Below, in pieces: positions 8,623 through 35,100 of a DNA stretch of 64,000 bases. The position numbers and the translations under genes were made by a program. How positions within the stretch are numbered: position 1 is the stretch's first letter; every line of letters starts with the position of its first letter. The DNA is from Clostridia bacterium (GTDB lineage Bacteria; Bacillota; Clostridia; RGIG6154). Below the pieces are notes generated by a model, which saw only the letters and a program-made list of their open reading frames with translations, was not told the DNA's origin and searched no databases. The stretch covers positions 15,004 through 79,003 of the forward strand of contig JAGAJK010000077.1 of NCBI GenBank assembly GCA_017626145.1. Reading direction: 5' to 3'.

Positions 8623-9201
8623 ATGCTTTATAGGGTACGAAAGAAAATACAAAGACATTTTAAAATTAATATTTTTATATGTATATTAATGTTTACTGTC
8701 TTTACGGCGGGCGTTTCAGCAGGAAGCAGTAATTTTGTCCTGACAGAGGAAAACAGTGATGTTATATTGTCTTATTTCAAGAATAAGGGTAATTTTGAAG
8801 CTGTAGTTACCGATTCTTTTTTTAAGAATATCAGAATTATATTTATAATATTTATAAGCGGAATGTCTGTTGCCGGGATTCCGGTAATTTTGTATACTCT
8901 CTTTAGCAGGGGTGTTTCATTAGGTGCAGGGGTTTGTGCTCTTATTTCAGTATCGGAGAGCAGTTATGTCGGAATAATTTTAAATTTATTACCACAGATT
9001 GTTTTTCTTATTCTTGCAGTTATGATTATAAGCTATTATGGATTTACGTTTTCGTGTTTCTTATGTACAAGAGTGTTTTTTGGTAAAAGCAGATACCCTA
9101 AAAGGGATGTAAGTGTTATAACCTTTGCAATTGTTTTTTTGATTTCAGCATTATGCTGTTTTTTATCAGCTTTGTGTGAAGGTTGGTTTATTCCTGTATA
9201 A
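8623..9201 (+). CDS. spoIIM: Stage II sporulation protein M-like integral membrane protein
   Basis: A multi-TM protein of about 190 aa with GIPVIL and LPQ segments resembling SpoIIM. It lies next to xerD, as B. subtilis spoIIM lies near ripX. Confidence 0.55.
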   Translation: MLYRVRKKIQRHFKINIFICILMFTVFTAGVSAGSSNFVLTEENSDVILSYFKNKGNFEAVVTDSFFKNIRIIFIIFISGMSVAGIPVILYTLFSRGVSLGAGVCALISVSESSYVGIILNLLPQIVFLILAVMIISYYGFTFSCFLCTRVFFGKSRYPKRDVSVITFAIVFLISALCCFLSALCEGWFIPV

Positions 9202-9268
9202 AAATCTAAAAATTTCTATGTACAAAAAGGATTTTTTGTAGTAAAATGGTGTAAAGGATGTGAGATAA

Positions 9269-10141
9269 TTGGAAAAGGCTGTAGATACATATCTTAATTT
9301 TCAGAATAAAGTAAAAAAGCTGTCAGGTAATACCGTTTCTTCTTACAGAAGAGATTTATATGCTTTTGCGGTTTATCTTCAGGAAAAATCAATAAGCTAT
9401 AAAAAAGTAAAGAAAACTGATATATATGAGTACATATCACAGCTGCAGCATAAGGGAAAATCTCAGGCAACTGTAGCAAGAGTTGTTGCATCTATACGTA
9501 ATTTTTATCATTATCTGTGTATGTCCGGAAATATGAAAAAAGATCCGTCGTCGGGAATTTCTGCACCTAAAATCGAGAAAAAGCTTCCCGGTATCCTGAC
9601 ATTAAGCGAGGTTGACAGACTTCTTTCACAACCGTCAGGTACTTCTTACAAAGAACGTCGGGATAAAGCTATGCTTGAATTATTGTATGCAACAGGAATC
9701 AGAGTTTCGGAGCTTATTGAACTGACTGTTGATAATCTTGATATGGATAACTATGTGATTATGTTTATTGAAAACGGTAAACAGAGAATAGTTCCTTTTG
9801 GTAATCAGGCACATAAGGCGCTTGAATTGTATTTTGAAAGCTCACCGTATCATAGTGAGCCGGGCATTTCACTATTTACAAATCTTTACGGTAAAAAGCT
9901 TACACGTCAGGGCTTCTGGAAAATTATTAAACATTATAAGGTAATGGCAGCAATAAAAAAAGATATTACACCACAGATGCTCAGACATTCTTTTGCAGCC
10001 CATCTTATGGACAACGGTATTGATAATTCATCATTACAGGAGCTTATGGGTTATTCAGCGATAGCATCTGTAAAAAAGTATGAGGAGCTTTCAGGAAAAC
10101 GTATAGTCGATATTTATAAAAAAGTACATCCGAGAGCATAA
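9269..10141 (+). CDS. xerD: Tyrosine recombinase XerD/RipX-like (TTG start)
   Basis: MLELLYATGIRVSEL, GKQRIVPFG, LRHSFAAHL and a C-terminal ...DIYKKVHPRA resembling RipX. Two conserved His positions appear substituted (see findings). Confidence 0.8.
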   Translation: MEKAVDTYLNFQNKVKKLSGNTVSSYRRDLYAFAVYLQEKSISYKKVKKTDIYEYISQLQHKGKSQATVARVVASIRNFYHYLCMSGNMKKDPSSGISAPKIEKKLPGILTLSEVDRLLSQPSGTSYKERRDKAMLELLYATGIRVSELIELTVDNLDMDNYVIMFIENGKQRIVPFGNQAHKALELYFESSPYHSEPGISLFTNLYGKKLTRQGFWKIIKHYKVMAAIKKDITPQMLRHSFAAHLMDNGIDNSSLQELMGYSAIASVKKYEELSGKRIVDIYKKVHPRA

Positions 10142-10215
10142 ATTATATAGAATATACATATATTGACACAGAAGATTTCTGTGTCTTTTTATTATATTCA
10201 GAAAGGAAGAATAGA

Positions 10216-11356
10216 TTTGAAAAGGCTTGTGTCCATAATTGTATTAATTGTAACGCTTTGCGTTAATCTAAGCGTGTATGCTAAAGATATGGAAACACTT
10301 ACAGGCAGGTCACTGATACTTGCATCAGGCGACGGAAAAGTTCTGTTTGAAAAAAATGCTGATGAAAAGCTTCCTCCTGCATCGGTAACTAAAATCACAA
10401 CTGCTTTGCTTGTAATGGAAGCAATTGACCAGGGAAAGGTATCTTTTGAGGATATAGTAACAGTAAGTGAAACGGCAGCGAATAAAACAGGCTCGCATAT
10501 TTTTCTTGCACCGGGAGAGGAAATGAGCGTAAAAGACCTTATGAAAGGTCTGATGGTTGCATCTGGTAACGATGCCGCTATAGCTCTCGCTGAGCACTTG
10601 TGCGGAAGTGAAGAAGCGTTTGTTAAAGAGATGAATGCAAAAGCAAAAAAGCTTGGAATGAAAAATACAAACTATATTAACTGCAACGGTCTTGATGCTG
10701 ACAATCATTATTCATCTGCAAGAGATATAATGATAGTTACCTCAGAGCTTATGAAGTATGAAAAAATATTTGAGTTTTCTACTATCTGGATGGATACACT
10801 CAGAAACGGTGAATTTCAGCTTGCAAACACCAATAAGCTTGTAAGATTTTATGAAGGTGCCAACGGTATGAAAACGGGTTCAACTTCGATTGCTAAATAT
10901 TGTCTTAGTGCCACCGCAAAAAGAAACGATGTTCAGCTTATCGCTGTTGTTCTTCAGGCACCTACATCGAAGGACCGTTTCGGGGATGCATCAACAATGC
11001 TGAACTATGGCTTTAATACATACGAAAATGTAAAGGTTTGCGAAAAAGGGAAGGTGCATTCATATACCGATGTTAAAAAAGGCACGCAAAACAGCGTAGG
11101 ACTTATGTTTGAAAATGATTTTAGTTCATTGGAGAAAAAAGGAAATGCACAAAACATACATTACGAAATAAAGAATATCGAGGAATTTGTAACAGCACCT
11201 GTTAAAAAGGGAGAAAAGCTTGGAACAGCGGAAATTTATAACGGAGAGAAAAAAATAGGAGAGGTTAGTCTTGTAGCTCGCGACAGCATAGAGAAAGTAA
11301 CCTTGTGGTACACGTTTACAAAGCTGTACAATACATTTGCAAACTTTATAATTTAA
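10216..11356 (+). CDS. dacB: D-alanyl-D-alanine carboxypeptidase (PBP5/DacB family, peptidase S11), catalytic motifs intact
   Basis: Signal peptide, then SxxK (PPASVTK), SxN (ASGND) and KTG (GMKTGST) motifs. TTG start at 10216 after an AGGAAG RBS; the alternative start is 10163. Confidence 0.82.
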
Positions 11357-11389: not shown

Positions 11390-12463
11390 TTATCGGTATT
11401 CTCTTTCAATTGTATCTGAAAGTAATATAGGGTTTGCTTGCAGAATAACCTTGTCGCCGGGTTTTGCATCAATATCAGTAATATCACATATTATGTTGAA
11501 CATACCTGTTCTCCCTAAAATCTCAGCTTTTTTACCGCATATTTCAACATAATGCTTCTGTGTTTTCAAATCACTTAAAATATAACGTATTTTATCACGC
11601 AATCTGAAAGTGTCCCTGCTTTTTTCTGTCATAAAGCCATGAGCATATCCAACAGGCACAATTGCAGTTTTTGTATCTTTTGTAGTATTGTATGTGTTTC
11701 CGTAGCCAATGTTACTTCCTTTTTTCAGAAAATTGGTGTCAACTATTTCTGATTCAAGAAAACCAACCTTTTGAAATCCTATAGATGCCGAACCCAAAAT
11801 TCTTCCCAGAAATGCTGAACCTACACGAACGCAATCAAGATGACTCTCTTTGCAATTAAGAAATGCACTTGAGTTGGATATATGCAAAGCACCGGTAGCA
11901 AAACCGTTTTTGTTAAGAGCTTCAACACAATTTTTAAAGCTGGAAAGCGGCTCAAGAGTATCATTCTTATTTTTTGAAAAGCTGAAGGAAAAATGTGAAA
12001 ATGTACCGCAGTAGTCAATATTATATTCTTTAAGGCTTAGAATTAAATCTATATCATTGTAATCGAAGCCACATCTACCCATTCCTGTATTTATTTCTAT
12101 ATGAGCCTTCGGTATTGTATCAAATTTTTTGCCGGCTTCTTCAAGTGCCTTGGCAGAATCAACAGAGCCTACTGTTGCAATGATATTGTTTTCTGCAATT
12201 TTTTCACAGTCATTTCTGGTTGCATATGATGTAAGAAGTAAAATATCTGTTTCGGGGAAAGCATTTTTAAGAGTTACAGCCTCCTCAATCTCTGAAACAG
12301 CAAGTATTTTAATTCCATTTTCAGTCAGAATTTTGGCAAATGGTATTAAACCAAGTCCGTAACCGTTGCATTTAATCATAGCAATTACCGTGCTGTCGGT
12401 CATTTGTTTAATTATATTTATGTTGTTTATAAGCTTATCTTTTTCTACAATGTATTTATTCAT
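11390..12463 (-). CDS. alr: Alanine racemase-family PLP enzyme
   Basis: An N-terminal AMIKCNGYGLG region resembles the Alr PLP-lysine motif AVVKANAYGHG. The two-domain racemase length is about 357 aa. Confidence 0.65.
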   Translation of the reverse strand: MNKYIVEKDKLINNINIIKQMTDSTVIAMIKCNGYGLGLIPFAKILTENGIKILAVSEIEEAVTLKNAFPETDILLLTSYATRNDCEKIAENNIIATVGSVDSAKALEEAGKKFDTIPKAHIEINTGMGRCGFDYNDIDLILSLKEYNIDYCGTFSHFSFSFSKNKNDTLEPLSSFKNCVEALNKNGFATGALHISNSSAFLNCKESHLDCVRVGSAFLGRILGSASIGFQKVGFLESEIVDTNFLKKGSNIGYGNTYNTTKDTKTAIVPVGYAHGFMTEKSRDTFRLRDKIRYILSDLKTQKHYVEICGKKAEILGRTGMFNIICDITDIDAKPGDKVILQANPILLSDTIEREYR

Positions 12464-13521
12464 TACTTACGGAGCATAACCTTTCTGCGTAAATTTCTGT
12501 ATGCAGGTTCACCTTTTTCAACGAGAAATCTCATAACAGGGTCAAAAACAAAGTCAATATCTCCTATAAATTCGGTAAAGTCACCCATAAAGCCCTTCTT
12601 GAAACGGTAAAGTCCGTATAACGGATTATCAGGGGAAAGGTCTCCGGATACACCTCTGAAGTCGTAAATTCTTGATTTTGATTCAATTGCCCATTTAATC
12701 ATTTCCCACTGGAGAAGGTAGTTTGGCATAACATTTCTGTAATCATTGGAGCTTGCACCGTAAAGATACCATACCTTGTCGCCGTATTTAAGTGCTATTG
12801 TACCGGAAATTATCTTACCTTCATAATGCGCAAGATATAAACGCAAATTATCGCCGGGAGCCATAACATCATACATTTTTTCAAAGTATTCAAGAGTTCT
12901 TACAACAAATTCGTCTCTCTGTCCTGTTTCAACCATTATCTCGTGAAAACGCTTAAGATCTTCACGTTTTCCCAGGGAAACTGTAACATTGTTTTTTATG
13001 GCAACACGGATATTGTAGCGTGTTTTATTGTGGAATGACATAAAAACTTCATCTTCGGTTTTATTTTCAACATTAAGTCTGAAAACGAAACGAGGCTGAA
13101 TACCTTCAAAATTTTTTGACGCTTTTTGAATTTTAAAGCCATTTTCCGCTACGATAGTTTTAAATTCTTCATCTGAAATAACAACATCAGGGTCAATTTT
13201 TAAGGTATAAGCATTATATTTTTTACCCAGCTCTTTTGCAGAGTCGAAAAGACTTTTAAGTACTTTACGGTCGTGAATATCACAAACAGGTCCTCGTGGA
13301 CTGTACATAAGTGTTTTCTTAAAAATCGGAACCTTGCGGATGAGGATGCTCATAACGCCGTTAATTTTTCCATTTTCGTCACGGCTTAAAACAACTTCAT
13401 TTTTCCAGTTGTTTTTAATTTCAGACCACATAGTTGTCTGGCAAAAATGTCCCTTTGGGCAAGCTGCGACAAAGTCATTATATTCCTTTACTTCATTTTG
13501 GTTGTTTTTGTCAAGTATCAT
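12463..13521 (-). CDS. FemAB-family aminoacyltransferase (FemX-like peptidoglycan bridge-formation protein)
   Basis: FemAB-family N-terminal region (MILDKNNQNEVKEYNDFVAACPKGHFCQTTMWSEIK...). The stop codon overlaps the alr start (TAATG). An AAGGAG RBS precedes the ATG at 13521. Confidence 0.7.
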   Translation of the reverse strand: MILDKNNQNEVKEYNDFVAACPKGHFCQTTMWSEIKNNWKNEVVLSRDENGKINGVMSILIRKVPIFKKTLMYSPRGPVCDIHDRKVLKSLFDSAKELGKKYNAYTLKIDPDVVISDEEFKTIVAENGFKIQKASKNFEGIQPRFVFRLNVENKTEDEVFMSFHNKTRYNIRVAIKNNVTVSLGKREDLKRFHEIMVETGQRDEFVVRTLEYFEKMYDVMAPGDNLRLYLAHYEGKIISGTIALKYGDKVWYLYGASSNDYRNVMPNYLLQWEMIKWAIESKSRIYDFRGVSGDLSPDNPLYGLYRFKKGFMGDFTEFIGDIDFVFDPVMRFLVEKGEPAYRNLRRKVMLRK

Positions 13522-13649: not shown

Positions 13650-14924
13650 TTACATTTTTTTAAGCTCTTCAAAACGGGCACGTTTTGCTTTTTTCTTCTT
13701 TATAGACTTGTTTTTGTAATATATAACAAAAATAATGAATAAAAGAATTGCAATTATAAGCAATGTGTTAACCTTTGAAAAGAACTGATTGTAAAGGTAT
13801 GCAAAGGGGCTGCCTTTAACATCGTTTTCTGCGACGAGAGAAACTGTTGCAACCTTCTTGCCGTCGTAAAGATATTCTACGGTTCCGATTTTCTGACCCT
13901 TGGTCACAGGTGCGGAAATTTCCTCAGGAATCTGAGACTGTGTTGTAATTTTCTCCTTTGTATAACCGAGAGGAATAAGTGTCATAACATCCCTGTCCGT
14001 AACAAGATGGAGCACGGGAGTTTTCCCATTCGGAACATTTACCTGCTCAATAATATCACCTGCAGTACATATTTTACGTGGATAATAGTTTTTAAATCCG
14101 TGTTCAAAAAGATTTATAGTATCTTTATATATACTGAAATCATCGGGTGAATTTACAATTATAGCAATAAGAGTTGAACCGTTTTTGGTAGCTGTAGCTA
14201 TAATGCTTTCAGTTCCGTTGTTTTTGGATACCATCATACCGTTTGCCGCAGAGTATGTATAATCTGAATAGGTATATTTGCTTATAAGATGATTGCGGCT
14301 TGAGTACATTTCCATTTCTTCATTTTCAAACATAAGTTCAAACTGGTCCATAGCAAGAACATCCATAATATCCTTATCTTTGGATACAGCCCTTGCAAGG
14401 ATGTACAGGTCGTTTACCGTCGTTTTACTTATGCCTGTCTGGTCGTAACCGCATGGAGAAGCAAAAACTGTATCGTTCATACCAAGCTCTTTTGCTTTTT
14501 TGTTCATTTCTTCGGTAAAGGCCTTAACACTGCCGCTGTATGCTATAGCAAGCTCTGTGGCACTGGCGTCTGAATACAAAAGGAGCATATTTCTTAAATG
14601 ATGACGAACCTTAACTTTAATTCCGGTTTTATAGCCGGCGATGTTTCCGTATTCATTATGAAATACCAAAGGCTCCTGCTTAAAGGTGAGCCAGTCACCG
14701 GGGTAGAATTTTTCCATACATATTAATGCTGTCATAAGCTTGGAAAACTCATTAGGTGCAATTGAAACAGAGCAACCCTGCTGTGTAAGAACATTATCCT
14801 CGCTGAGTTCAGCCAGAAAATAAGAGTTTGCCGTAACAGCCGACAGATTGTTTGCACTGACTGTTGTGCTGAGCATCATAATGATTGTTAAAATTAAAAT
14901 AATAGTCTTTTTCATATTCTTCTC
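13650..14924 (-). CDS. PBP5/DacB-like protein with degenerate active site (predicted catalytically inactive), signal peptide and C-terminal TM anchor
   Basis: Alignable along its length to the dacB product at 10216-11356, but SxxK becomes NEFSK, SxN becomes SDA and KTG is lost. A GGAGAAG RBS precedes the ATG at 14924. Confidence 0.7.
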   Translation of the reverse strand, partial: EKNMKKTIILILTIIMMLSTTVSANNLSAVTANSYFLAELSEDNVLTQQGCSVSIAPNEFSKLMTALICMEKFYPGDWLTFKQEPLVFHNEYGNIAGYKTGIKVKVRHHLRNMLLLYSDASATELAIAYSGSVKAFTEEMNKKAKELGMNDTVFASPCGYDQTGISKTTVNDLYILARAVSKDKDIMDVLAMDQFELMFENEEMEMYSSRNHLISKYTYSDYTYSAANGMMVSKNNGTESIIATATKNGSTLIAIIVNSPDDFSIYKDTINLFEHGFKNYYPRKICTAGDIIEQVNVPNGKTPVLHLVTDRDVMTLIPLGYTKEKITTQSQIPEEISAPVTKGQKIGTVEYLYDGKKVATVSLVAENDVKGSPFAYLYNQFFSKVNTLLIIAILLFIIFVIYYKNKSIKKKKAKRARFEELKKM

Positions 14925-15073
14925 CTGATTTTGTACAATTATATAAGAAAATTGTAGCATAAATATGCATTAATGTCAAACAAAATACGTTTTTCCTCTT
15001 GCATTTGTTTTAAATTTGGTTTATGATATATATTAGAGATAATTATAAGCATTTGTAAGAAGGAAGGAAAAAA

Positions 15074-15757
15074 ATGAAATTATTAATTGTTGACGACGAA
15101 AGACTTCTTGTTAAAGGTCTTAAATTCAATTTTGAGCAGGACGGATATGAGGTTGAAACTGCCGGAGATGGTGAAGAAGCAGTCCGTATTGCAAGAAGTC
15201 AGAATATAGATTTGATTATACTTGACCTTATGTTGCCTAAAATGGATGGTCTTGAGGTTTGTCAGAAAGTAAGGGAAACCTCAAATGTTCCAATAATTAT
15301 GCTTACGGCAAAGGCGGAGGATATGGATAAAATCTTAGGTCTCGAATACGGAGCGGACGATTATCTTACAAAGCCTTTTAATATACTTGAATTAAAGGCA
15401 AGAGTAAAAGCAATTCTCCGTAGAAGAGGAGCTAAAACAGATACAGCGGATAACGAAATATCCAAAAGCGGAATCAAGCTTGACCGTATGTCGAGAACAG
15501 CAAATGTTGACGGCAGAGTTATTGAGCTTACCGTAAAAGAGTACGATATTATGGAGCTTCTTATGACAAATACAGGCAGAGTATATTCACGCGATGATTT
15601 GCTTGACATAATCTGGGGTGTAGGATATCCAAAAGATGCAAGAACAGTTGACGTTCATGTAAGAAGACTGCGTGAAAAAATTGAAGCCGATTCGGCTCAG
15701 CCAAAATACATAATGACAAAATGGGGAGTGGGTTACTATTTCAACAGCAAGCAGTAA
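15074..15757 (+). CDS. OmpR-family response regulator (WalR/YycF-like)
   Basis: Receiver domain (DDE...D, MLTAKAEDMD, GADDY.TKPF) plus a winged-helix C-terminus. Confidence 0.88.
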   Translation: MKLLIVDDERLLVKGLKFNFEQDGYEVETAGDGEEAVRIARSQNIDLIILDLMLPKMDGLEVCQKVRETSNVPIIMLTAKAEDMDKILGLEYGADDYLTKPFNILELKARVKAILRRRGAKTDTADNEISKSGIKLDRMSRTANVDGRVIELTVKEYDIMELLMTNTGRVYSRDDLLDIIWGVGYPKDARTVDVHVRRLREKIEADSAQPKYIMTKWGVGYYFNSKQ

Positions 15758-15824: not shown

Positions 15825-17174
15825 GTGCTTACTCTTGTTTTTATATCGACATATATTCTCGCGACCATAAGTCAGTATCTTTATAATCAGAATCAGGTTG
15901 AGCTTCTTGCCAATGCAAACGTAGTCGCAAATACGGTTTCTGATTATATCAAGGATAATCGGGAATTGATTCCGGTTGCTGTAAGCCGTCTTAGCCTGGG
16001 AGATTCTGTAAGAGTAATAATTACTGATAAAGATGCAGTTGTGCTTCATGATTCTGCAAGTGAACACGCAAATATCGAAGGTAAAACGCTTGTAAAGCCA
16101 GAGGTTATTAAAGCTCTTAAGGGAAGCGACTCTGTAGGCAGATATGATGAGAGTGAAATAGGTACTATTATACAGGGAGCGGTTTCGGTTATATCTGATT
16201 CAGATGTAGTAGGTGTGGTATACCTTTCCGAAGCAGCAAAATCAACTGATGACTTTATGGCGGACATACGCTGGATACTTATTGTCATTTCACTTATAGT
16301 ATGTATTCTTATTGGCGTTTTAAGCTCAGTTATGGCAGATGTAATAGTAAGCCCTATAGAAAAGCTGACTAAAATTATCAATAAAATGAAAAGCAGTTCT
16401 ATGGAAGAACGTGTTCCTGTTAACGGTAATGATGAAATTGCTCAGCTTGGGGATGCTTTTAATCAGCTTACCGACAGACTTAACGAAATGGAGGAAAAGC
16501 GTCGTCAATTTGTTTCAAATGCATCTCACGAGTTGAAAACACCTCTTAGCTCAATTAAGCTTTTAAGTGACTCCGTTTTATCTATGGAGACCCTTGATGA
16601 GGAATATGTAAGGGAATTTATGGAGGATATAAACGGTGAGATTGACAGACTGACAAAAATTATCAACCGTCTGCTTTCACTGACCAAGCTGGATATAAAT
16701 TACGAAGAGCTTGAGCTTAAGGTAACAGATATAAATGAAATGGCACAGCGAATAGTAAAGAGTCTTATGCCTGTTGCTCTTAATAAATCAATAAAACTGC
16801 ATTTATTTACCGAAAATGAAGTTCTTGCAATGGTTGACAGGGAAAAATTCTGGCAGGTGCTTTATAACATTACCGATAATGCTGTTAAATATACTCCCGA
16901 GGGCGGCACAGTAAGTCTTTATGTGTTTGGTGAAGGCGACTATGTAAGAATCGAAGTTATTGATAATGGTATAGGTATACCTGAAGGTCAGATTGATAAG
17001 ATATTTGACAGATTTTACCGTGTTGATAAAGCCCGTTCCCGTGAAAGCGGCGGAACAGGACTTGGACTTTCTATTGTTAAGGATGTTGTTGATTCTCATA
17101 ACGGCGAAATTGTTGTAGACAGTAAAGAAAATGACGGAACAAAATTTGTTATCGTTATTCCTAAAAAGCTTTGA
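15825..17174 (+). CDS. Sensor histidine kinase (TM-HAMP-HisKA-HATPase). The N-terminus is probably longer than annotated.
   Basis: H-box SHELKTPLSS, and N-, G1- and G2-boxes (DNAVKYT, DNGIGIP, GGTGLGLSI). Only a GTG at 15825 was found in frame, but the frame is open for about 25 codons upstream. Confidence 0.8.
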   Translation: MLTLVFISTYILATISQYLYNQNQVELLANANVVANTVSDYIKDNRELIPVAVSRLSLGDSVRVIITDKDAVVLHDSASEHANIEGKTLVKPEVIKALKGSDSVGRYDESEIGTIIQGAVSVISDSDVVGVVYLSEAAKSTDDFMADIRWILIVISLIVCILIGVLSSVMADVIVSPIEKLTKIINKMKSSSMEERVPVNGNDEIAQLGDAFNQLTDRLNEMEEKRRQFVSNASHELKTPLSSIKLLSDSVLSMETLDEEYVREFMEDINGEIDRLTKIINRLLSLTKLDINYEELELKVTDINEMAQRIVKSLMPVALNKSIKLHLFTENEVLAMVDREKFWQVLYNITDNAVKYTPEGGTVSLYVFGEGDYVRIEVIDNGIGIPEGQIDKIFDRFYRVDKARSRESGGTGLGLSIVKDVVDSHNGEIVVDSKENDGTKFVIVIPKKL

Positions 17175-17193: not shown

Positions 17194-18096
17194 ATGAAAA
17201 GGATAACAGCACTTATTTTATGTATTGTGTTTCTTCTGCTTACCGGCTGCTCGGGCAGCTCTGAGAAAATGAATGTAAAGCTTTGCTTTCTTGATTCGGA
17301 GAAGACGGGCGTGGTATATGAGGAAAGGGAAATTTCATATACGAAGGATGAAGAAATTCCATCCCTTGTTATGGATGAGTTTCTTAAAGGTCCTGAAAAC
17401 AGTGAATTAAGAACAATTGTTCCGGAAGGATTAAGAGTTAATGAAGTAATTACAAATAATAATCTTATTGTTGTGGATTTTTCTTCTGAGTTCGTACAGG
17501 AGAACAATGCAGACAATCTTTTGCTTCGTACTTGCGTTGTAAATACATTAACAGCAGTAGCCGGTATCGATAATGTTCTTATTCTTGTAAACGGAGATAA
17601 TCTAACCGACGTTAACGGAGATGTTATAGGTATAATTAAAAAAGGGGATATAGTTTCTGACCAGGAGCTTACCCAGGAAACTGATGCTCTTATTACCTTG
17701 TACTTCTCTGAAAGTGATTATGCAGCACTTATTTCTGAAACGAGAGAGGTTACTATATCTCAGAACGAAACTACCGAAATGAAAATAATGAAAGAGTTAC
17801 TGAAAGGACCGGAGAAAAAGAATCTTCAGAGGACAATTCCGGCAGAAACTAAAATTCTTTCTGTAGAAACAAAGGACGGTGTGTGCTTTGTAAATCTTTC
17901 ACAGGATTTCATATCTAAAAATTCAGGCGGAATCTCCGCACAGACTTTGTCGGTATACTCAATTGTAAATTCACTTACAGAGCTTGAAATGGTCGATAAG
18001 GTTCAGTTCCTGATAGAAGGACAAAAAGTAGAAAGCTTCATTGATATGATTTTTAACGAGCCATTTGTACGTGATGAAGGGCTTATACGAAACTAA
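17194..18096 (+). CDS. Lipoprotein with two GerMN-like domains (GerM-like)
   Basis: Lipobox LLLTGCSG and a twice-repeated LKGPE.....R(T)I(V)P module. A strong AAAGGAGGAA RBS precedes it. Confidence 0.65.
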   Translation: MKRITALILCIVFLLLTGCSGSSEKMNVKLCFLDSEKTGVVYEEREISYTKDEEIPSLVMDEFLKGPENSELRTIVPEGLRVNEVITNNNLIVVDFSSEFVQENNADNLLLRTCVVNTLTAVAGIDNVLILVNGDNLTDVNGDVIGIIKKGDIVSDQELTQETDALITLYFSESDYAALISETREVTISQNETTEMKIMKELLKGPEKKNLQRTIPAETKILSVETKDGVCFVNLSQDFISKNSGGISAQTLSVYSIVNSLTELEMVDKVQFLIEGQKVESFIDMIFNEPFVRDEGLIRN

Positions 18097-18130: not shown

Positions 18131-18313
18131 TTAATCTGTAGTTATTTTAACTGTTCTTCTTTTTCTTACAACACGTTTGGTAAGGTCTTCCTCATACTTT
18201 CTGCAAGGGCTGTCTTCGGACATAACCCCTTTTTTAGCACAAACTATATCGTTATTACAGCACAATACGTTACCGTAAACACAAGTTGTGCAGCTTTTAA
18301 CTGTTTCTTCCAT
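18131..18313 (-). CDS. Small cysteine-rich protein (60 aa, 7 Cys, basic C-terminal tail), possibly metal-binding
   Basis: MEETVKSCTTCVYGNVLCCNNDIVCAKKG...SPCRKYEE...RKRR. A terminator lies immediately 3' of it. It is divergent from spoVB. Confidence 0.45.
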   Translation of the reverse strand: MEETVKSCTTCVYGNVLCCNNDIVCAKKGVMSEDSPCRKYEEDLTKRVVRKRRTVKITTD

Positions 18314-18461
18314 TGTGAATCCCTGCCTTAAAAATTTTTATATTCTTATTGTATCACGAAATATTTGATTTTGCAACTGCATAAAATTAATTATTGATAT
18401 TAATTTCGATTTATGATATACTTAATGGTATATAACCTACATCTTGTCAGGAGGCATTAAT

Positions 18462-20066
18462 TTGGGTAAATTGAAGAAGCAGGGTTTTTTGCAGGGGGCA
18501 ATGATTCTTGCAATTGCAAATATTCTTGTAAAGTGTATAGGGCTTTTCTTTAAGATTCCTATAAGAAGACTGTTTGGTGCTAACGGTATGGGTATTTACA
18601 CATCGGCTTACAGTCTTTATAATATAATGTTTGTCATTGCTACTGCAGGACTTCCTGTAGCAATTTCAAAAATGGTTTCTGAAACTTCCACGAAGGGAAA
18701 CTGGAAGGAAACCAAAAAGGTATATAAAATAGCACGTATTATTCTTCTCGCTATAGGTGTAGTGGGAACTGCAATTTTATTTTTTGGCAGTAATTTTATA
18801 GCTGATAATATGAAAATTTCCGATTCGGCTATGCCTATACGCGCATTGGCACCAAGCTTGTTTTTTGTTGCGATTCTGAGTGTAAACAGAGGACTTTGTC
18901 AGGGACTTTCCAATATGGTTCCCACAGCAATTTCGGAAACTATTGAAGCAATGGGAAAACTTGTGATAGGTCTTGGTCTTGCTATAGTGTTTTTGCAGAC
19001 AACAGGTGATGTTGTAAGTGGTGTTTCAGGTGCCATTTTAGGTGTTACTACAGGTACTTGTATTGCAGCGATATATATAACTATCGGAAGCAGAAACATT
19101 AAAAAACATATTTATGATAAAGCAAAAGAAGATTCAAGTACAGATAGTGCATCTGTAAAAAGTCTTGCATTACGTCTTGCTAAGCTTGCTATTCCTATTA
19201 CCATAGGCGCTTCTGTATTTACGCTTGCTTCAACAATTGATTTATTTATGATAACACGTCAGCTTGAAGGGCTTGGTTATTCAGAGGCCGCAAGAACCAC
19301 TATGTATGGATATTACGCCGGCGATGCAGTTACAATGTTCAATATGCCGCCAACGGTTATTACTGCACTTTCTGTAAGTATAGTTCCTGCAATAGCTTCA
19401 GCCTTCGTTAAGCACGATATAATCGGAGCAAGAAAAACTACAGAAACTGCAATAAGAATAACTCTTTTATTTGCATTACCATGTGCGGTAGGTATGTCTG
19501 TTTTGTCAGCACCTATACTACAGCTTATTATGGGTGATGCAGGTGCATCAACACTTCTTTCAATACTTTCTTACGGTATTATTTTTGTGTGTCTTGTTCT
19601 TGTTTCAAATTCTGTTCTGCAGTCTATGGGGCAGGTTTGGACTCCCGTTATACATATGTGTATAGGTGGGATAGTAAAGGTAGTGGTAAATTATATTCTC
19701 GTAGGAAATCCGCAGATAAATATCAACGGTGCTCCGGTGGGAACAGTTCTTTGTTACCTTGTTACATCAATGCTGAATTTAATTTCAATCAGCAAATATT
19801 TAAAACCGAAATACGGAATTGATTTCATACTCAAATCAGCACTTGGTGCAGCGATTATGGGATTTGCGGTTTATTTTATTTATTCGAAGATGTCTTTGAT
19901 GGGACAGGGAACACTTACTATGCTTGTTGCGTTAGGTGTATCAATTGCAGTTGGCGTAATTTTATATTTTGCTCTCCTTTTTATAACTAAAGCAATGAAA
20001 AAACAGGATATAGAGTTTATGCCAAAATCCGAAAAAATCCTTAAATTAGTTGGAAGGTTTCTTTGA
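18462..20066 (+). CDS. spoVB: Stage V sporulation protein B / MurJ-family (MOP superfamily) flippase, YabM/SpoVB-like
   Basis: A multi-TM protein. Its N-terminus (GLFFKIPIRRLFGANGMGIY...AGLPVAISKMVSE) resembles SpoVB. An AGGAGG RBS precedes the TTG at 18462; the ATG at 18444 lies inside the RBS. Confidence 0.75.
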   Translation: MGKLKKQGFLQGAMILAIANILVKCIGLFFKIPIRRLFGANGMGIYTSAYSLYNIMFVIATAGLPVAISKMVSETSTKGNWKETKKVYKIARIILLAIGVVGTAILFFGSNFIADNMKISDSAMPIRALAPSLFFVAILSVNRGLCQGLSNMVPTAISETIEAMGKLVIGLGLAIVFLQTTGDVVSGVSGAILGVTTGTCIAAIYITIGSRNIKKHIYDKAKEDSSTDSASVKSLALRLAKLAIPITIGASVFTLASTIDLFMITRQLEGLGYSEAARTTMYGYYAGDAVTMFNMPPTVITALSVSIVPAIASAFVKHDIIGARKTTETAIRITLLFALPCAVGMSVLSAPILQLIMGDAGASTLLSILSYGIIFVCLVLVSNSVLQSMGQVWTPVIHMCIGGIVKVVVNYILVGNPQININGAPVGTVLCYLVTSMLNLISISKYLKPKYGIDFILKSALGAAIMGFAVYFIYSKMSLMGQGTLTMLVALGVSIAVGVILYFALLFITKAMKKQDIEFMPKSEKILKLVGRFL

Positions 20067-20244
20067 GTGAAATTAAGGATTTCATAAAAAATCGGGCATT
20101 TTTTGTAGAAAATTCATAAAAAATCGTAAAAATTTTAATATTTTTGTTATGGGTAAAAAGCTCTCAAAACCGCATTGCAAAAGGGAATTTTGGGGTTAAG
20201 AACAAAAAAAATAATATTTTTTAAAGAAATTTGCACAAAAACAC

Positions 20245-20274
20245 TTGAATAATTGGGCGGTTTTGTGTATAATA
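20245..20274 (+). promoter_or_regulatory. Sigma-A-type promoter for hup (TTGAAT-N17-TATAAT)
   Basis: cttgaataattgggcggttttgtgtataat. Confidence 0.55.
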
Positions 20275-20360
20275 AGTAAGGAATTGATTGATAAAATGGC
20301 GGTAACGCCTTTTATAAACAAACCCAATATGTTTAAATTTCAATAGGAGGTGAATGTTTC

Positions 20361-20633
20361 GTGAATAAGACAGAACTTATCGCTGCAATGGCTGAAAAGG
20401 CTGGTTTATCAAAGACCGATGCTGAAAAGGCTCTTAACGCTTTTATGAATAGCGTAAAGGACGCATTAGCTGATGGTGACAAGGTACAGCTCGTAGGCTT
20501 TGGTACATTCGAAGTAAAGGAAAGAGCTGCAAGAAAGGGTATTAATCCTCAGACAAAGGCTGAAATTACTATCCCTGCATCAAAGGCTCCTGCTTTCAAG
20601 GCTGGACAGGCTTTCAAAAGTGCTATTAAATAA
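20361..20633 (+). CDS. hup: DNA-binding protein HU (GTG start)
   Basis: MNKTELIAAMAEKAGLSKTDAEKALNAF...VQLVGFGTFEVKERAARKGINPQT. Confidence 0.92.
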   Translation: MNKTELIAAMAEKAGLSKTDAEKALNAFMNSVKDALADGDKVQLVGFGTFEVKERAARKGINPQTKAEITIPASKAPAFKAGQAFKSAIK

Positions 20634-20703
20634 TCAGCAAGCAAATGTTTAGTGCAGTCCGTTTTTTGCGGGCTGCATGATTTTTTTAAGGAAAGGCAAA
20701 TTT

Positions 20704-20958
20704 ATGCGTATAGATAAATTTTTAAAGGTATCAAGACTTATCAAAAGAAGAACTGTTGCAAATGAAGCGTGTGATAAAGGAAGAATAAGTGTCAACGGAA
20801 AAATTGTAAAAGCATCGTATAATGTAAGTGTAGGGGATATAATGGAAATATCCCTTGGTGAAAAAATACTGAAGGTGGAAATTTTAAAGGTTGACGATAA
20901 GCATATTACCAAGGATGATGCACCGTTAATGTACAGACAGTTTGAACAGTTATCATAA
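20704..20958 (+). CDS. yabO: S4-domain RNA-binding protein YabO (Hsp15-like)
   Basis: MRIDKFLKVSRLIKRRTVA...G.I.VNGK S4 motif. Its position 5' of yabP matches the conserved cluster. Confidence 0.8.
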   Translation: MRIDKFLKVSRLIKRRTVANEACDKGRISVNGKIVKASYNVSVGDIMEISLGEKILKVEILKVDDKHITKDDAPLMYRQFEQLS

Positions 20959-21020
20959 TTAAGGCTCCTTTCAAATATTATTAAATATGGAATTTAATAA
21001 TGAAAGGAGCTTAATATTTT

Positions 21021-21302
21021 ATGGAGGAGAAAAAATACAGCCGAATACATAATGTTATAATGGAGGACCGTGAGCACCTTAGTGTTTCCGGAGTTACTGA
21101 TGTAAGTGAATTTAATGAAATGCAGATAATTCTCGTAACGGAAATGGGAATGATGACTGTGGAGGGAGAAAATCTGAGAATAAGTGAGCTTAGTATTGAA
21201 ACCGGGGATATGAAAATAGACGGAACAGTAAATTCAATAATCTACAGCGAAGAAGATTTGAGGGGAGTACATACAAGCCTTTGGTCAAAGCTTTTCAGGT
21301 AA
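21021..21302 (+). CDS. yabP: Sporulation protein YabP
   Basis: HNVIMEDREHLSVSGVTDVSEFNEMQIILVT...LRISELSIETGDMKIDG is characteristic of the YabP family. Confidence 0.85.
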   Translation: MEEKKYSRIHNVIMEDREHLSVSGVTDVSEFNEMQIILVTEMGMMTVEGENLRISELSIETGDMKIDGTVNSIIYSEEDLRGVHTSLWSKLFR

Positions 21303-21325
21303 GAGACTAAGAAGGCGGTGATTAT

Positions 21326-21829
21326 TTGACGGTCAATACAACGGTAGAGCTGTTTACTTGTTTGTTTTCATTTCTCTGCGGACTTGCAGCAGGCTTTATA
21401 TATGACTTTCTTTCAATTATTATCTGTAAAGAAGGGAAAGTGGCTTCGTTTTTTAAAGAACTGTTTTATTTTACGGTTCTGGCATTTATTTCTGTTAATG
21501 TAATACGATTTGTTAATGACGGCGTTTTCCGTGCTTATGAACTCGTTTTTTTGATTGTAGGCGTGCTTGGGTATGTGCTTGTGTTTGGAAGTATCGTACA
21601 AAAGATCTTAAAAGCATTACTTAAAGCTGTATACGTAATCATGAAATTTATCGTAAAGATTTTTATTTATCCCTTAATTTTTATCCTCAGTCCGGTAAAA
21701 AGACTATTTTTTAAGAAATATTTGCAAATTTGCAAAAAAATCTCTAAAAATAGATTGACAATGAAGCAAATTTGTTTTAGAATTATTATGTATATGGGTG
21801 AAATTAAAAGATTTTATAAACATAAGTAG
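21326..21829 (+). CDS. yabQ: Spore cortex biosynthesis protein YabQ (membrane protein, TTG start)
   Basis: Position directly after yabP; hydrophobic, about 167 aa. Confidence 0.65.
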   Translation: MTVNTTVELFTCLFSFLCGLAAGFIYDFLSIIICKEGKVASFFKELFYFTVLAFISVNVIRFVNDGVFRAYELVFLIVGVLGYVLVFGSIVQKILKALLKAVYVIMKFIVKIFIYPLIFILSPVKRLFFKKYLQICKKISKNRLTMKQICFRIIMYMGEIKRFYKHK

Positions 21830-21835
21830 GAGGCT

Positions 21836-22153
21836 GTGTTAGTGAGTAACGGTTCAAGAAAGAACAGAAAGTCTAATAAAAGATTATACTCATTGCTGAT
21901 ATTGGTTGCTACATTTGTTTTCGGGATATATTTTTGTGTGACTTTTATTAAACAGGAAATAAACATTTCTCAGCTGGAGGCAGAGGCTAAGGCTGTTCAG
22001 GAAAAGGTTGATGAGCAGGTTCAGTATTCAAAGGAACTTGAAGATAATATGAAACCGGATAATGAATTGAAGCGTGTTGAAGAAACTGCAAGAGAAAAAT
22101 TAGGCTATCTGAAGAATGATGAAGTGCTCTTTATCGATTCTTCTGAGAAATAA
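21836..22153 (+). CDS. divIC: Septum formation initiator DivIC/FtsB family
   Basis: Basic N-terminus, single TM, then a coiled coil (QLEAEAKAVQEKVDEQVQYSKELED). Position after yabQ. Confidence 0.75.
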   Translation: MLVSNGSRKNRKSNKRLYSLLILVATFVFGIYFCVTFIKQEINISQLEAEAKAVQEKVDEQVQYSKELEDNMKPDNELKRVEETAREKLGYLKNDEVLFIDSSEK

Positions 22154-29031: not shown

Positions 29032-29077
29032 CTTTCCATTATGTATTTATCTGCAATAAGCAGTTAAATAACCAGGC

Positions 29078-29340
29078 TGTACTAACCGGGACGGTAGCGG
29101 TGTCCTGAACCTGCAATCCGCTATAGCAGGGGTGAATGCCCGTTTGAGTTTTATATTTACACGGTCTGCAGTGTTATCTGAAGTGTTGAGGACCGGGTCT
29201 TGCGCAATTGCAATTTGTGAACCTTGTCAGGCGGGGAACCGAGCAGCAATAAACAAAATCTGCAGTGTGCCGCGAGGTAGCCTGATCTGAGTGGACGGTA
29301 ATGCTACGCGTGTGGATATACTGCGATTTCGGGCTGTATA
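29078..29340 (+). ncRNA. ffs: Signal recognition particle RNA (Bacillus-type long scRNA/4.5S, ffs). Boundaries are approximate.
   Basis: GGTAGCGGTGTCCTGAACCTGCAATCCGCTATAGCAGGGG (Alu-domain segment, close to B. subtilis scRNA as remembered) and domain IV TGTCAGGCGGGGAACCGAGCAGC (compare GGUCAGGUCCGGAAGGAAGCAGC). The position immediately 5' of dnaX matches Bacillus. Confidence 0.75.
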
Positions 29341-29364
29341 GCTATAAAAAAGGAGGAGCTGTTA

Positions 29365-33213: not shown

Positions 33214-35100
33214 TTGAGTATTATGGCAGAAAAGAAAGAAAAAAGATATGTGAGCGATAATGCTCAACTTATGGCTGAATGGGATTGGGAAAAGAATAAC
33301 GAATTAAACTTCAATCCTGAAAAACTAACACTTGGAAGCAACAAAAAAGCATGGTGGAAGTGCAGTAAGGGGCACAAATGGCAATCCACAATTTTTCATA
33401 GAAATAGTGGTACTAGTTGCCCATATTGTACAGGAAGATACGCCGTTAAAGGTGAAAATGATTTACAAACAGTTAATCCAACTTTAGCGAGAGAGTGGAA
33501 TTATGAAAAGAACAATGGATTAACACCCATGGATGTATTGCCTAATAGCAACAAAAAAGCATGGTGGAAGTGCAACAAAGGACACGAATGGCAAGCATCG
33601 ATATCCAATAGAAATATAGGAAACGGATGCCCTTGTTGTGCAGGACAAATGATTTTAAAAGGCTATAATGATTTACAAACGATTAATCCAACATTAGCAG
33701 AAGAATGGAATTATGAAAAGAACAATGGATTAACACCGGTGGATGTAATGCCTAATAGTGGGCAGAAAGTATGGTGGAAATGTAATAAAGGGCACGAATG
33801 GCAGGCTGTGATAGCAAGTAGAAATAATGAACATGGATGCCCCGTTTGTAATTCTGAACGAAAGACCTCTTTCCCTGAGTATGCACTTGTATATTATCTT
33901 AAAGAATACGGACTGGATGTAATGCATTCATATAGGGAACAGGGATATGAATTGGATATTTATATCCCATCTAAAAAAATAGCCATTGAATATGATGGAT
34001 ATCTCTGGCATAAAAACATAATTAAGAAAGATTTAGAGAAAAATTATAAATGTAAAAAAGATGGAATTGTATTATATAGGATAAGAGAAGGGTTGGCATC
34101 GTTAAGTGATAGTTCTATAGACTATGTTATTCAAAGAAATCAAAAAGATCTGTCAAAAATACTTGCAGAAGTTTTATGCAGGATAGTTGGAACAGATGTT
34201 GATGTTGATTTAGAAAGAGATACTATTGCTATAGAAAATTTGCGAGTATACACGGAAAAGGGAAAATCTATTTTGTTTTCTAATCCGAAAGTAGCAACCG
34301 AATGGAATTATGAAAGAAATGGCAATTTAAAACCAGAACATTTTCCAGCCAATAGCAATAAAAAGGTCTGGTGGAAATGTAATGAAGGGCACGAATGGCA
34401 GGCGACAATTGTTAATAGAAACAAAGGACGCAAATGTCCATATTGTGCGGGCAAAAAAATTTTGGAAAGCTATAATGATTTACAAACGGTTAATCCGAGT
34501 TTAGCGGAAGAATGGAACTATGAAAAAAATAATGGATTAACACCTTCGGATGTATTACCTAACAGTAATAAAAAAGTATGGTGGAAGTGTAGCCAAGGGC
34601 ATGAATGGCAAACTACAGTAGCTCATAGAAATAGCGGGCGTGGATGTCCTTATTGCACACATCAAAAGGTTTTAAAAGGCAATAATGACTTAAAAATAGT
34701 GAATTCGAATTTAGCAGAGGAATGGAACTATGAAAAGAATAATGAACTAACACCTTTGGATGTATTACCTAACAGCAATAAAAAAGTATGGTGGAAGTGT
34801 GGTAAAGGACACGAATGGCAAGCACTGATAGCTGATAGAAACAACGGGCGCGGATGTCCGTATTGCACAGGCAAAAAAGTTTTAAAAGGTTATAATGATT
34901 TGCAGACAGTAAATCCAACTTTAGCAAAAGAATGGAATTATGATAAAAACGGCGAATTAACGCCTATGGAAGTAGCCCCTAATAGCGGGAAAAAAGTATG
35001 GTGGAAATGCAGTAAGGGGCACGAGTGGCAAGCGATAATACAAAATCGAAATCGAGGGCGTGGGTGTCCAATTTGTGCAAAAGAAAAGCGAAGCAAGTGA
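33214..35100 (+). CDS. Multi-zinc-ribbon repeat protein with a central DUF559/Vsr-like (PD-(D/E)xK) endonuclease domain
   Basis: Seven copies of an approximately 61-aa module (KKVWWKC.KGHEWQA.I..RN.G.GCPYC.GKKVLKGYNDLQTVNP.LAEEWNYEKNNGLTP.DVLPNS), three N-terminal and four C-terminal of the core YELDIYIPSKKIAIEYDGYLWH...DGIVLYRIRE. At the DNA level the modules form about 183-bp imperfect tandem repeats. Confidence 0.7.
   Translation: MSIMAEKKEKRYVSDNAQLMAEWDWEKNNELNFNPEKLTLGSNKKAWWKCSKGHKWQSTIFHRNSGTSCPYCTGRYAVKGENDLQTVNPTLAREWNYEKNNGLTPMDVLPNSNKKAWWKCNKGHEWQASISNRNIGNGCPCCAGQMILKGYNDLQTINPTLAEEWNYEKNNGLTPVDVMPNSGQKVWWKCNKGHEWQAVIASRNNEHGCPVCNSERKTSFPEYALVYYLKEYGLDVMHSYREQGYELDIYIPSKKIAIEYDGYLWHKNIIKKDLEKNYKCKKDGIVLYRIREGLASLSDSSIDYVIQRNQKDLSKILAEVLCRIVGTDVDVDLERDTIAIENLRVYTEKGKSILFSNPKVATEWNYERNGNLKPEHFPANSNKKVWWKCNEGHEWQATIVNRNKGRKCPYCAGKKILESYNDLQTVNPSLAEEWNYEKNNGLTPSDVLPNSNKKVWWKCSQGHEWQTTVAHRNSGRGCPYCTHQKVLKGNNDLKIVNSNLAEEWNYEKNNELTPLDVLPNSNKKVWWKCGKGHEWQALIADRNNGRGCPYCTGKKVLKGYNDLQTVNPTLAKEWNYDKNGELTPMEVAPNSGKKVWWKCSKGHEWQAIIQNRNRGRGCPICAKEKRSK

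Follow-up and report, generated by a model that had tools for sequence, protein, structure and literature searches.

Annotated wherever it is named as a D-alanyl-D-alanine carboxypeptidase, the product of one gene in the stretch of Clostridia bacterium DNA analysed here (64,000 nucleotides of contig JAGAJK010000077.1, hereafter the window) retains the fold of penicillin-binding protein 5 (PBP5) and has lost all three catalytic motifs of peptidase family S11, and is therefore to be classed as an S11-fold pseudoenzyme rather than as a DD-carboxypeptidase. We have little doubt that it is dead as a PBP, and it is very probably functional and under selection. Its gene stands divergently beside a WalRK/MtrAB-like two-component system (TCS), a position that in related lineages is held by an intact gene of the same architecture. 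With modest confidence, we favour the view that the protein is exported, tethered by a transmembrane (TM) helix and acts by binding from this TCS-divergent position, thereby contributing to wall homeostasis. The gene and its parts, in window coordinates, are the following.

13650..14915, minus strand: coding sequence of the catalytically dead PBP5-like protein, 421 amino acids plus stop (open reading frame list, Pfam, start codon and ribosome-binding site, AlphaFold2 model)
14979..14951, minus strand: sigma-A-type promoter TTGACA-17-TACAAT with a TG extension (TGcTACAAT), matching boxes at orthologous loci
14921..14926, minus strand: ribosome-binding site AGGAGA, 5 nt 5' of the ATG at 14915
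14853..14915, minus strand: predicted signal peptide MKKTIILILTIIMMLSTTVSA, residues 1-21 (sequence, hydropathy, AlphaFold2 helix 2-15)
14739..14756, minus strand: degenerate motif 1, P54-N-E-F-S-K59 on P-A-S-x-T-K; Ser replaced by Glu56, Lys59 kept and invariant
14559..14576, minus strand: degenerate motif 2, Y114-S-D-A-S-A119 on x-S-x-N-D-A; Ser115 kept, Asn replaced by Ala117
14250..14303, minus strand: family-specific segment S205-S-R-N-H-L-I-S-K-Y-T-Y-S-D-Y-T-Y-S222, with R207, N208, H209, S212, T215 and Y221 invariant
14220..14240, minus strand: degenerate motif 3, G226-M-M-V-S-K-N232 on G-x-K-T-G-x-T; KTG replaced by M228-V-S230
13815..14081, minus strand: PBP5_C beta-sandwich domain, residues 279-367, including APVTKGQKIGT (Pfam, BLASTP, AlphaFold2)
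13716..13772, minus strand: predicted C-terminal TM helix VNTLLIIAILLFIIFVIYY, residues 382-400 (19 residues; hydropathy, AlphaFold2 helices)
13653-13715, minus strand: Lys/Arg-rich tail after the TM helix, predicted to be cytoplasmic (sequence)

The loss of the catalytic motifs depends on their register, for which an intact paralogue in the window served as the reference.

10217..11356, plus strand: intact DacB-like S11 paralogue (PASVTK, SGN, KTG), open reading frame from 10163 (Pfam)

As the initial annotation of this DNA had proposed, the two proteins align along their length, with a common APV.KG.K.GT segment (BLASTP, 29% identity, E 9e-35, 392 columns), and PNEFSK falls on PASVTK, YSDASA on SGNDAA and GMMVSKN on GMKTGST. 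The same register was obtained with MAFFT and 28 other S11 proteins and when a profile of the family was searched against solved structures of PBP5 and DacB. All three alignments thus agree that SxxK has become E-F-S-K, with Glu in place of the nucleophile, and that SxN has become S-D-A, both as first read. The accompanying statement that the protein has no KTG holds in register, where M-V-S is found, but not literally, because the string occurs at residues 96-98 (GYKTGIK). That copy aligns to an omega-like loop (LAPGEE in the paralogue) and not to strand beta-3, and orthologues read KNG, KEG or KPG there. Similarly, a literal S-A-N lies three residues past the SxN position in about half of the orthologues, out of register and unconserved; the window protein has SAT. 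A string search for S..K, S.N and K[TS]G, read together with the alignments, revealed no other conserved S-x-x-K near the N-terminus of helix 2 that might replace the lost one: S..K strings occur only at residues 178, 261 and 404, and none of them is conserved.

For comparison with PBP5, the protein was aligned by MAFFT to an E. coli DacA sequence that matched the published numbering at S44, K47, G105, S110, N112, R198, K213, H216 and R248. On this alignment, the equivalents of Lys47, Ser110 and Arg198 presumably survive, and those of Ser44, Asn112, Lys213, Thr214, Gly215 and Arg248 are presumably gone: Ser44 is replaced by Glu (Asp, Glu or Asn within the family), Asn112 by Ala, Lys213-Thr214-Gly215 by Met-Val-Ser and Arg248 by Ile or Val. 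Established PBP chemistry implies that a protein that has lost the nucleophilic Ser, the equivalent of Asn112 and the KTG strand could not be acylated, and from its sequence it should have neither DD-carboxypeptidase nor beta-lactam binding activity. Since the loss of the equivalents of Asn112, Lys213, Thr214, Gly215 and Arg248 also makes canonical binding of D-Ala-D-Ala doubtful, the earlier suggestion of a peptidoglycan-binding regulator or scaffold stays a conjecture.

Might this simply be a gene on its way out? All catalytic motifs are lost, and the Peptidase_S11 match (PF00768, 78 bits) reaches one third of the score of the intact paralogue (246 bits), although it still exceeds the cutoff, as does the match to PBP5_C (PF07943, 62 bits). 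A decaying, functionless gene is nevertheless effectively refuted by conservation. A search of 5.8 billion proteins returned 41 close relatives (E <= 1e-81, 38-100% identity) followed by a gap to E 1e-41, and among 1.84 billion cluster representatives at 50% identity the family has six (E <= 1e-161), again followed by a gap, to 1e-79. The orthologues, about 40 in number, have full-length open reading frames at 38-88% identity in 16 species, whose loci (GTDB, one genome per species) all derive from "Clostridia bacterium" metagenome-assembled genomes of uncultured gut or rumen organisms. They retain P-x-[D/E/N]-F-[S/A]-K and NMLLL[Y/F]SDASA, and 33 positions are invariant across the 38 near-full-length members. 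Against the closest orthologue (locus L001, 88% identity), the ratio of nonsynonymous to synonymous substitution rates (dN/dS) is 0.033, next to 0.026 for the adjacent response regulator and 0.038 for the histidine kinase, ratios that are approximate because dS is saturated. The promoter and ribosome-binding site are conserved as well, and the structural model is confident. The check proposed at the outset, namely whether purifying selection has preserved the degenerate motifs across orthologues, therefore came out in favour of a selected, non-catalytic protein.

What has been conserved is a remodelled cleft. The invariant residues include K59, N91, H106, N109, S115-D-A-S-A119, R207-N-H209, S212, T215, Y221, Y263, D265 and N268, and by alignment most invariant positions sit in the segments that line the PBP5 cleft and not in the pedestal domain. 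Where the nucleophile once stood, all 38 aligned members and two further representatives, P0121 and P0122, have D, E or N, and the Asn variants indicate that an acid is not required there. Asp, Asn and Ser are favoured helix N-cap residues; Glu is less so. Conceivably, K59, S115, D116, S118, R207, N208 and H209 might constitute a novel catalytic site, such as a Ser115-Lys59 dyad, directed at another wall substrate. The invariance of the SxxK Lys and the SxN Ser, the several new invariant polar residues nearby and the concentration of conservation in the cleft-lining segments relative to the pedestal would all fit such a neo-functionalised enzyme. We nonetheless regard it as improbable, since strand beta-3, which provides the oxyanion hole and carboxylate binding, is unconserved at the KTG position, D, E and N are all accepted in place of the nucleophile, and a second dead family (described below) carries other substitutions, including Gly at the nucleophile position. 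To our knowledge, moreover, no S11 or beta-lactamase-fold enzyme has such a residue set. The SSRNHLISxYTY..YTYS segment is near-invariant, yet its Tyr/Thr-rich loop has low predicted local distance difference test (pLDDT) values in the AlphaFold2 model, and a conserved loop modelled with low confidence resembles what an interaction loop might be.

The overall fold is modelled well. Built on 38 orthologues, the AlphaFold2 model has a pLDDT of 86 and a predicted TM-score (pTM) of 0.75, and begins with an N-terminal helix (2-15) followed by a low-pLDDT linker. Foldseek places it closest to PBP6 and PBP5 of E. coli and PBP5 of P. aeruginosa (TM-score on the target 0.78-0.84, E ~1e-27). With these proteins (DacC and DacA in E. 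coli; PDB 1nzo, 3it9/3itb, 4k91) it shares the two-domain fold, export and a C-terminal membrane anchor, at ~21% sequence identity. It differs in having an extra conserved Tyr/Thr-rich loop before beta-3 and in being anchored by a genuine TM helix, followed by a basic tail, instead of an amphipathic helix. Hydropathy and the modelled helices bear out the signal peptide and the C-terminal TM anchor that were first annotated, and from both elements the protein is predicted to be exported and membrane-anchored. The original label of a PBP5/DacB paralogue is right as to the PBP5 fold, but DacB is not the best description: the TM anchor and an insertion before beta-3 are common to the dead PBP and to TM-anchored DacA-like proteins, whereas the DacB-like neighbour has neither.

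On its other side, the gene faces a two-component operon, and downstream of it lie a FemX-like gene and an alanine racemase gene.

15074..15757, plus strand: OmpR-family response regulator, best NCBIfam match YycF/WalR (below cutoff), divergent from the dead PBP
15825..17174, plus strand: WalK-like histidine kinase with TM, extracellular domain, TM, HAMP, HisKA and HATPase, without a cytoplasmic PAS domain
17194..18096, plus strand: lipoprotein with two GerMN (Germane) domains and a weak LpqB match, third gene of the TCS operon
12463..13521, minus strand: FemX-like FemAB-family transferase, best NCBIfam match UDP-MurNAc-pentapeptide-lysine N6-alanyltransferase (228 bits, below cutoff)
11390..12463, minus strand: alanine racemase (alr), its start overlapping the stop of the FemX-like gene

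The divergent orientation to a WalRK-like system is confirmed. The dead PBP gene is not part of that operon, being transcribed divergently from its own promoter, and the GerM lipoprotein is the in-operon accessory. This arrangement recurs in 12 of the 16 species-level loci of the family, and its roots lie far deeper among the Clostridia than was at first apparent. Histidine kinase homologues at 47-51% identity are found in Petroclostridium sp. X23 (complete genome) and three other lineages, and all four carry an S11 plus PBP5_C gene, encoding 442-449 amino acids, divergent from an operon of a comEA-like gene, response regulator, kinase and GerM lipoprotein. The four syntenic S11 proteins are intact (PASITK, SAN, KTG), with a signal peptide, a C-terminal TM helix and a basic tail. 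The Petroclostridium protein (CP124862, L019 4036-5370) thus shares with the window protein its position and orientation relative to the TCS, a comparable length, its membrane topology and the insertion before beta-3; it differs in keeping all three motifs and in sequence (25-27% identity for this type of protein), and its locus type has the comEA-like gene between S11 and the regulator. That gene, which encodes SLBB/HHH domains and usually comes first in an operon conserved in many Clostridia, is missing in the window's clade. The operon with a divergent S11 gene was found at loci L019-L023, L026, L108 and L109, and a survey of 80 GerM-anchored metagenome loci together with the earlier loci gave 29 with an intact S11 gene divergent from the regulator or comEA. 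Altogether, the pairing holds from 100% down to ~35% kinase identity, and the opposite flank changes in gene content. Neighbour-joining of the kinases groups the dead-PBP loci in a single clade embedded among lineages whose S11 genes are intact, and the simplest reading is one basal loss in this clade, after the position and the TCS had become paired. Position and architecture suggest that the dead gene descends in situ from the syntenic active gene.

Loss of catalysis beside this system seems to have happened more than once. A second dead family, which looks unrelated to that of the window, is represented by three proteins with a known genomic context.

L026 5001-6329: P0145, TCS-divergent position
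L108 1472-2782: P0134, TCS-divergent position
L109 1418-2752: P0254, TCS-divergent position

P0145 reads PAGLNK, ASN and LST and is divergent from a comEA-regulator-kinase-GerM operon whose kinase is 35% identical to that of the window; P0134 and P0254 are likewise divergent from comEA and a response regulator, so that all three members looked up hold the TCS position. The clade comprises ten 50%-identity cluster representatives, in all of which Gly, Glu or Ala stands in for the Ser of SxxK; KTG is also lost and SxN is mostly kept. Its members are 33-43% identical among themselves, 29-36% to the intact Petroclostridium protein and 26-31% to the window protein. P0145 has no close homologues and was dropped as the seed, and the family was defined from the representative set. 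Among the closest TM-anchored relatives outside the window's family, 223 in number, 74 have at least one degenerate motif, 42 have no nucleophile and 21 have none of the three motifs, counts that come from automatic alignment and a crude tree and give orders of magnitude only. Two further degenerate S11 genes have other neighbours: that of P0136 (L017 5226-6515) runs into the start of cdaA (diadenylate cyclase)-ybbR, and that of P0213 (L027 5001-6293) adjoins an Amidase_3 gene.

It thus appears that catalysis disappeared on two or more occasions at the TCS-divergent position, with position and architecture retained, which suggests a role independent of catalysis that is probably tied to the WalRK/MtrAB-like system. 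How might such a role be exerted? We envisage that the dead PBP has come to occupy the place of an intact TM-anchored DacA-type DD-carboxypeptidase gene back-to-back with the operon, and that in the window's clade catalysis would have been lost once, whereas the protein and its promoter, the genomic position and a remodelled, invariant former cleft were kept. The PBP5 pedestal would hold the ectodomain at a fixed height above the membrane, where the remodelled cleft and the Tyr/Thr-rich loop may bind either a ligand of wall origin or an extracytoplasmic partner. For the latter, the kinase encoded next door, through its sensor domain, and the GerM lipoprotein would be the prime candidates, obvious ones because two independent dead families keep that neighbourhood. 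Through such binding, the protein may contribute to wall homeostasis in vegetative growth. That it acts with the TCS is plausible but, in our judgement, falls somewhat short of probable. Bolder still, and rather unlikely, would be the idea that a membrane-anchored PBP5-type protein is an unrecognised integral partner of the clostridial WalRK/MtrAB-like system, that its signalling is free of catalysis and that dead PBP5s are recurrent envelope regulators; the nucleophile would then have been lost independently in at least two lineages because a signalling role would not need catalysis.

Several observations weigh against a binding role at the TCS. Most residues that bind the substrate carboxylate in PBP5 are gone (K213, T214, R248), and from the sequence canonical stem-peptide binding is unlikely. 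In one subclade (L002, L003, L004 and L007), the gene has left the vicinity of the TCS and joined a phosphoglucomutase (PGM)/Wzy_C-TPR/glycosyltransferase family 2 (GT2)/Bac_transf polysaccharide operon, and the dead PBP therefore need not strictly be encoded beside the TCS. The region is broadly syntenic (spoVB, HU, yabOPQ), so that some of the linkage may go back to gene order that was inherited. Within the shared intergenic region (14916-15073) there is no Bacillus-type WalR box (TGTWAH-N5-TGTWAH, at most one mismatch), a pattern for which 33 matches were observed against 26 expected. A neighbour-joining tree and BLAST of the S11 proteins, at 25-30% identity, do not separate descent from replacement, and the argument for descent rests on position and architecture instead. 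Finally, every family member comes from an uncultured metagenome-assembled genome.

Some of these points would fit an alternative in which the protein is a non-catalytic envelope scaffold unrelated to the TCS, which organises or positions other wall enzymes or glycopolymer-attachment machinery, for example a FemX-dependent branched stem-peptide pathway or a polysaccharide ligase, adjacency to the TCS being merely inherited. The relocated subclade and the missing WalR-type box fit this alternative, as do the neighbours of the other degenerate S11 families, which adjoin cdaA-ybbR or Amidase_3 and not a TCS. So do the FemX-like and alr genes, which lie downstream on the same strand and follow the dead PBP in eight orthologous loci. 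These two are 75-92% identical across orthologous loci, against 40-90% for the dead PBP. No terminator-like site was found between the dead PBP and the FemX-like gene, and the 128-bp gap could contain a separate promoter. Inherited gene order does not easily account, however, for an S11/TCS pairing that persists to ~35% kinase identity despite turnover of the genes on the opposite flank, or for two different dead families that both hold the TCS-divergent position. We therefore consider a scaffold independent of the TCS doubtful, and continue to favour a tethered protein that acts by binding beside it. In the relocated loci themselves (L003 4057-12035, with the same layout in L007), the dead PBP is the fifth gene of the phosphoglucomutase/Wzy_C-TPR/GT2/Bac_transf cluster, with tatD coming next; genes for SH3-NlpC/P60 and VanY proteins are found a few kb farther downstream.

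The promoter bears on when the protein is made. The open reading frame (13650..14960, minus strand) offers two ATG codons, at 14960 and 14915. The former lies 5' of the -10 box and hence before the transcription start, and AGGAGA precedes the latter, which we therefore take as the start; the end coordinate first given, 14924, was 9 nt too far upstream. The promoter matches the sigma-A consensus at 11 of 12 positions and is the top sigma-70-type match in the 4-kb region scanned. Its -35 and -10 boxes and the ribosome-binding site occupy the equivalent place in orthologous loci, and the 158-bp intergenic region between the dead PBP and the response regulator holds back-to-back sigma-A-type promoters.

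DacB and DacF are sporulation enzymes in Bacillus, and sporulation genes (spoIIM, dacB-like, spoVB-like, yabP/yabQ) lie within 5 kb on both sides of the dead PBP, which might point to a role confined to sporulation, for instance as a scaffold of the cortex or forespore membrane. The conserved promoter is of the near-consensus sigma-A type, however, and not of the sigma-E, -F, -G or -K type; the nearest proteins by architecture are TM-anchored and DacA-like, not DacB; and the conserved linkage is to the TCS, not to the sporulation genes. We hence find no support for the sporulation context that the initial annotation had raised, and hold such a role to be very unlikely.

A conceptual precedent for a catalytically dead wall protein is provided by the degenerate LytM (dLytM) factors EnvC/NlpD and by SpoIIQ, which have a peptidoglycan-hydrolase fold, have lost the catalytic residues and have been kept as envelope regulators or adaptors. 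The likeness is one of concept, as the fold differs (M23 metallopeptidase versus S11 serine peptidase), and their partners are known (amidases, SpoIIIAH), whereas the dead PBP has only candidates. Among PBPs that serve as sensors for envelope signalling, the nearest precedent is PbpP of Bacillus thuringiensis, which is reported to sense beta-lactams by binding and to signal to an anti-sigma factor (PMC8092216). The two proteins differ in two respects: beta-lactam binding implies an acylatable site, which a protein without the nucleophile does not have, and the output of PbpP is an anti-sigma factor and not a TCS (PMC8092216). As for the operon, MtrAB-LpqB of mycobacteria and WalA-WalRK of C. 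difficile (PMC9210968) resemble it in combining an OmpR-type response regulator, a PAS-less WalK-like kinase and an accessory lipoprotein. C. difficile WalA is a lipoprotein with a predicted beta-propeller lyase domain, encoded by the first gene of its operon (PMC9210968), unlike the two-GerMN lipoprotein of the window, which is encoded last, and an S11 partner gene has been described for neither system. A search of the open-access literature found neither a natural conserved S11/PBP5 pseudoenzyme nor a clostridial S11/WalRK-like gene pair, which is weak evidence of absence; a 2026 preprint on C. difficile carboxypeptidases does not mention inactive homologues, and a Streptomyces review tabulates missing motifs for beta-lactamase homologues only.

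Low-molecular-weight PBPs are treated as enzymes and beta-lactam targets, and a natural version that cannot be acylated would escape penicillin-binding assays. The label of D-alanyl-D-alanine carboxypeptidase on dead PBPs inflates the DD-carboxypeptidase repertoires inferred for gut Clostridia. If the dead PBP acts as we propose, it would extend the idea of pseudoenzymes as regulators from LytM factors to the PBP fold. The pairing of S11 genes with WalRK/MtrAB-like systems and the two losses of catalysis also offer a testable lead on modulators of essential wall-sensing systems in organisms without WalH and WalI, a question that the C. difficile WalRK study leaves explicitly open (PMC9210968). 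The interest lies in the pairing and in the repeated loss more than in the single gene, and is tempered by the organisms being uncultured.

Some other features of the window deserve mention. Sporulation-type genes occupy 8623-11356 (spoIIM, a xerD-like recombinase gene and the intact dacB-like gene) and 18444-22153 (a spoVB-like flippase gene, HU, an S4-domain yabO-like gene, yabP, yabQ and divIC-like genes). Between the GerM-lipoprotein and spoVB-like genes, at 18131-18313 on the minus strand, a Cys-rich open reading frame of 60 amino acids (CTTCVYGNVLCCNNDIVCAKKG...C) is conserved in loci L001, L010 and L011 (tblastn). Farther away, at 33214-35100 on the plus strand, an open reading frame of 628 amino acids consists of 210-bp (70-amino-acid) tandem repeats (Tandem Repeats Finder scores 551-725), the unit of which encodes a zinc-ribbon-like motif, WWKC.KGHEWQA...CPYC. 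A large bacterial signal recognition particle RNA (168 bits) lies at 29077-29341 on the plus strand, and the window contains six tRNA genes (Ser-tga, Pro-ggg, Leu-tag, Pro-cgg, Arg-cct and Met-cat).

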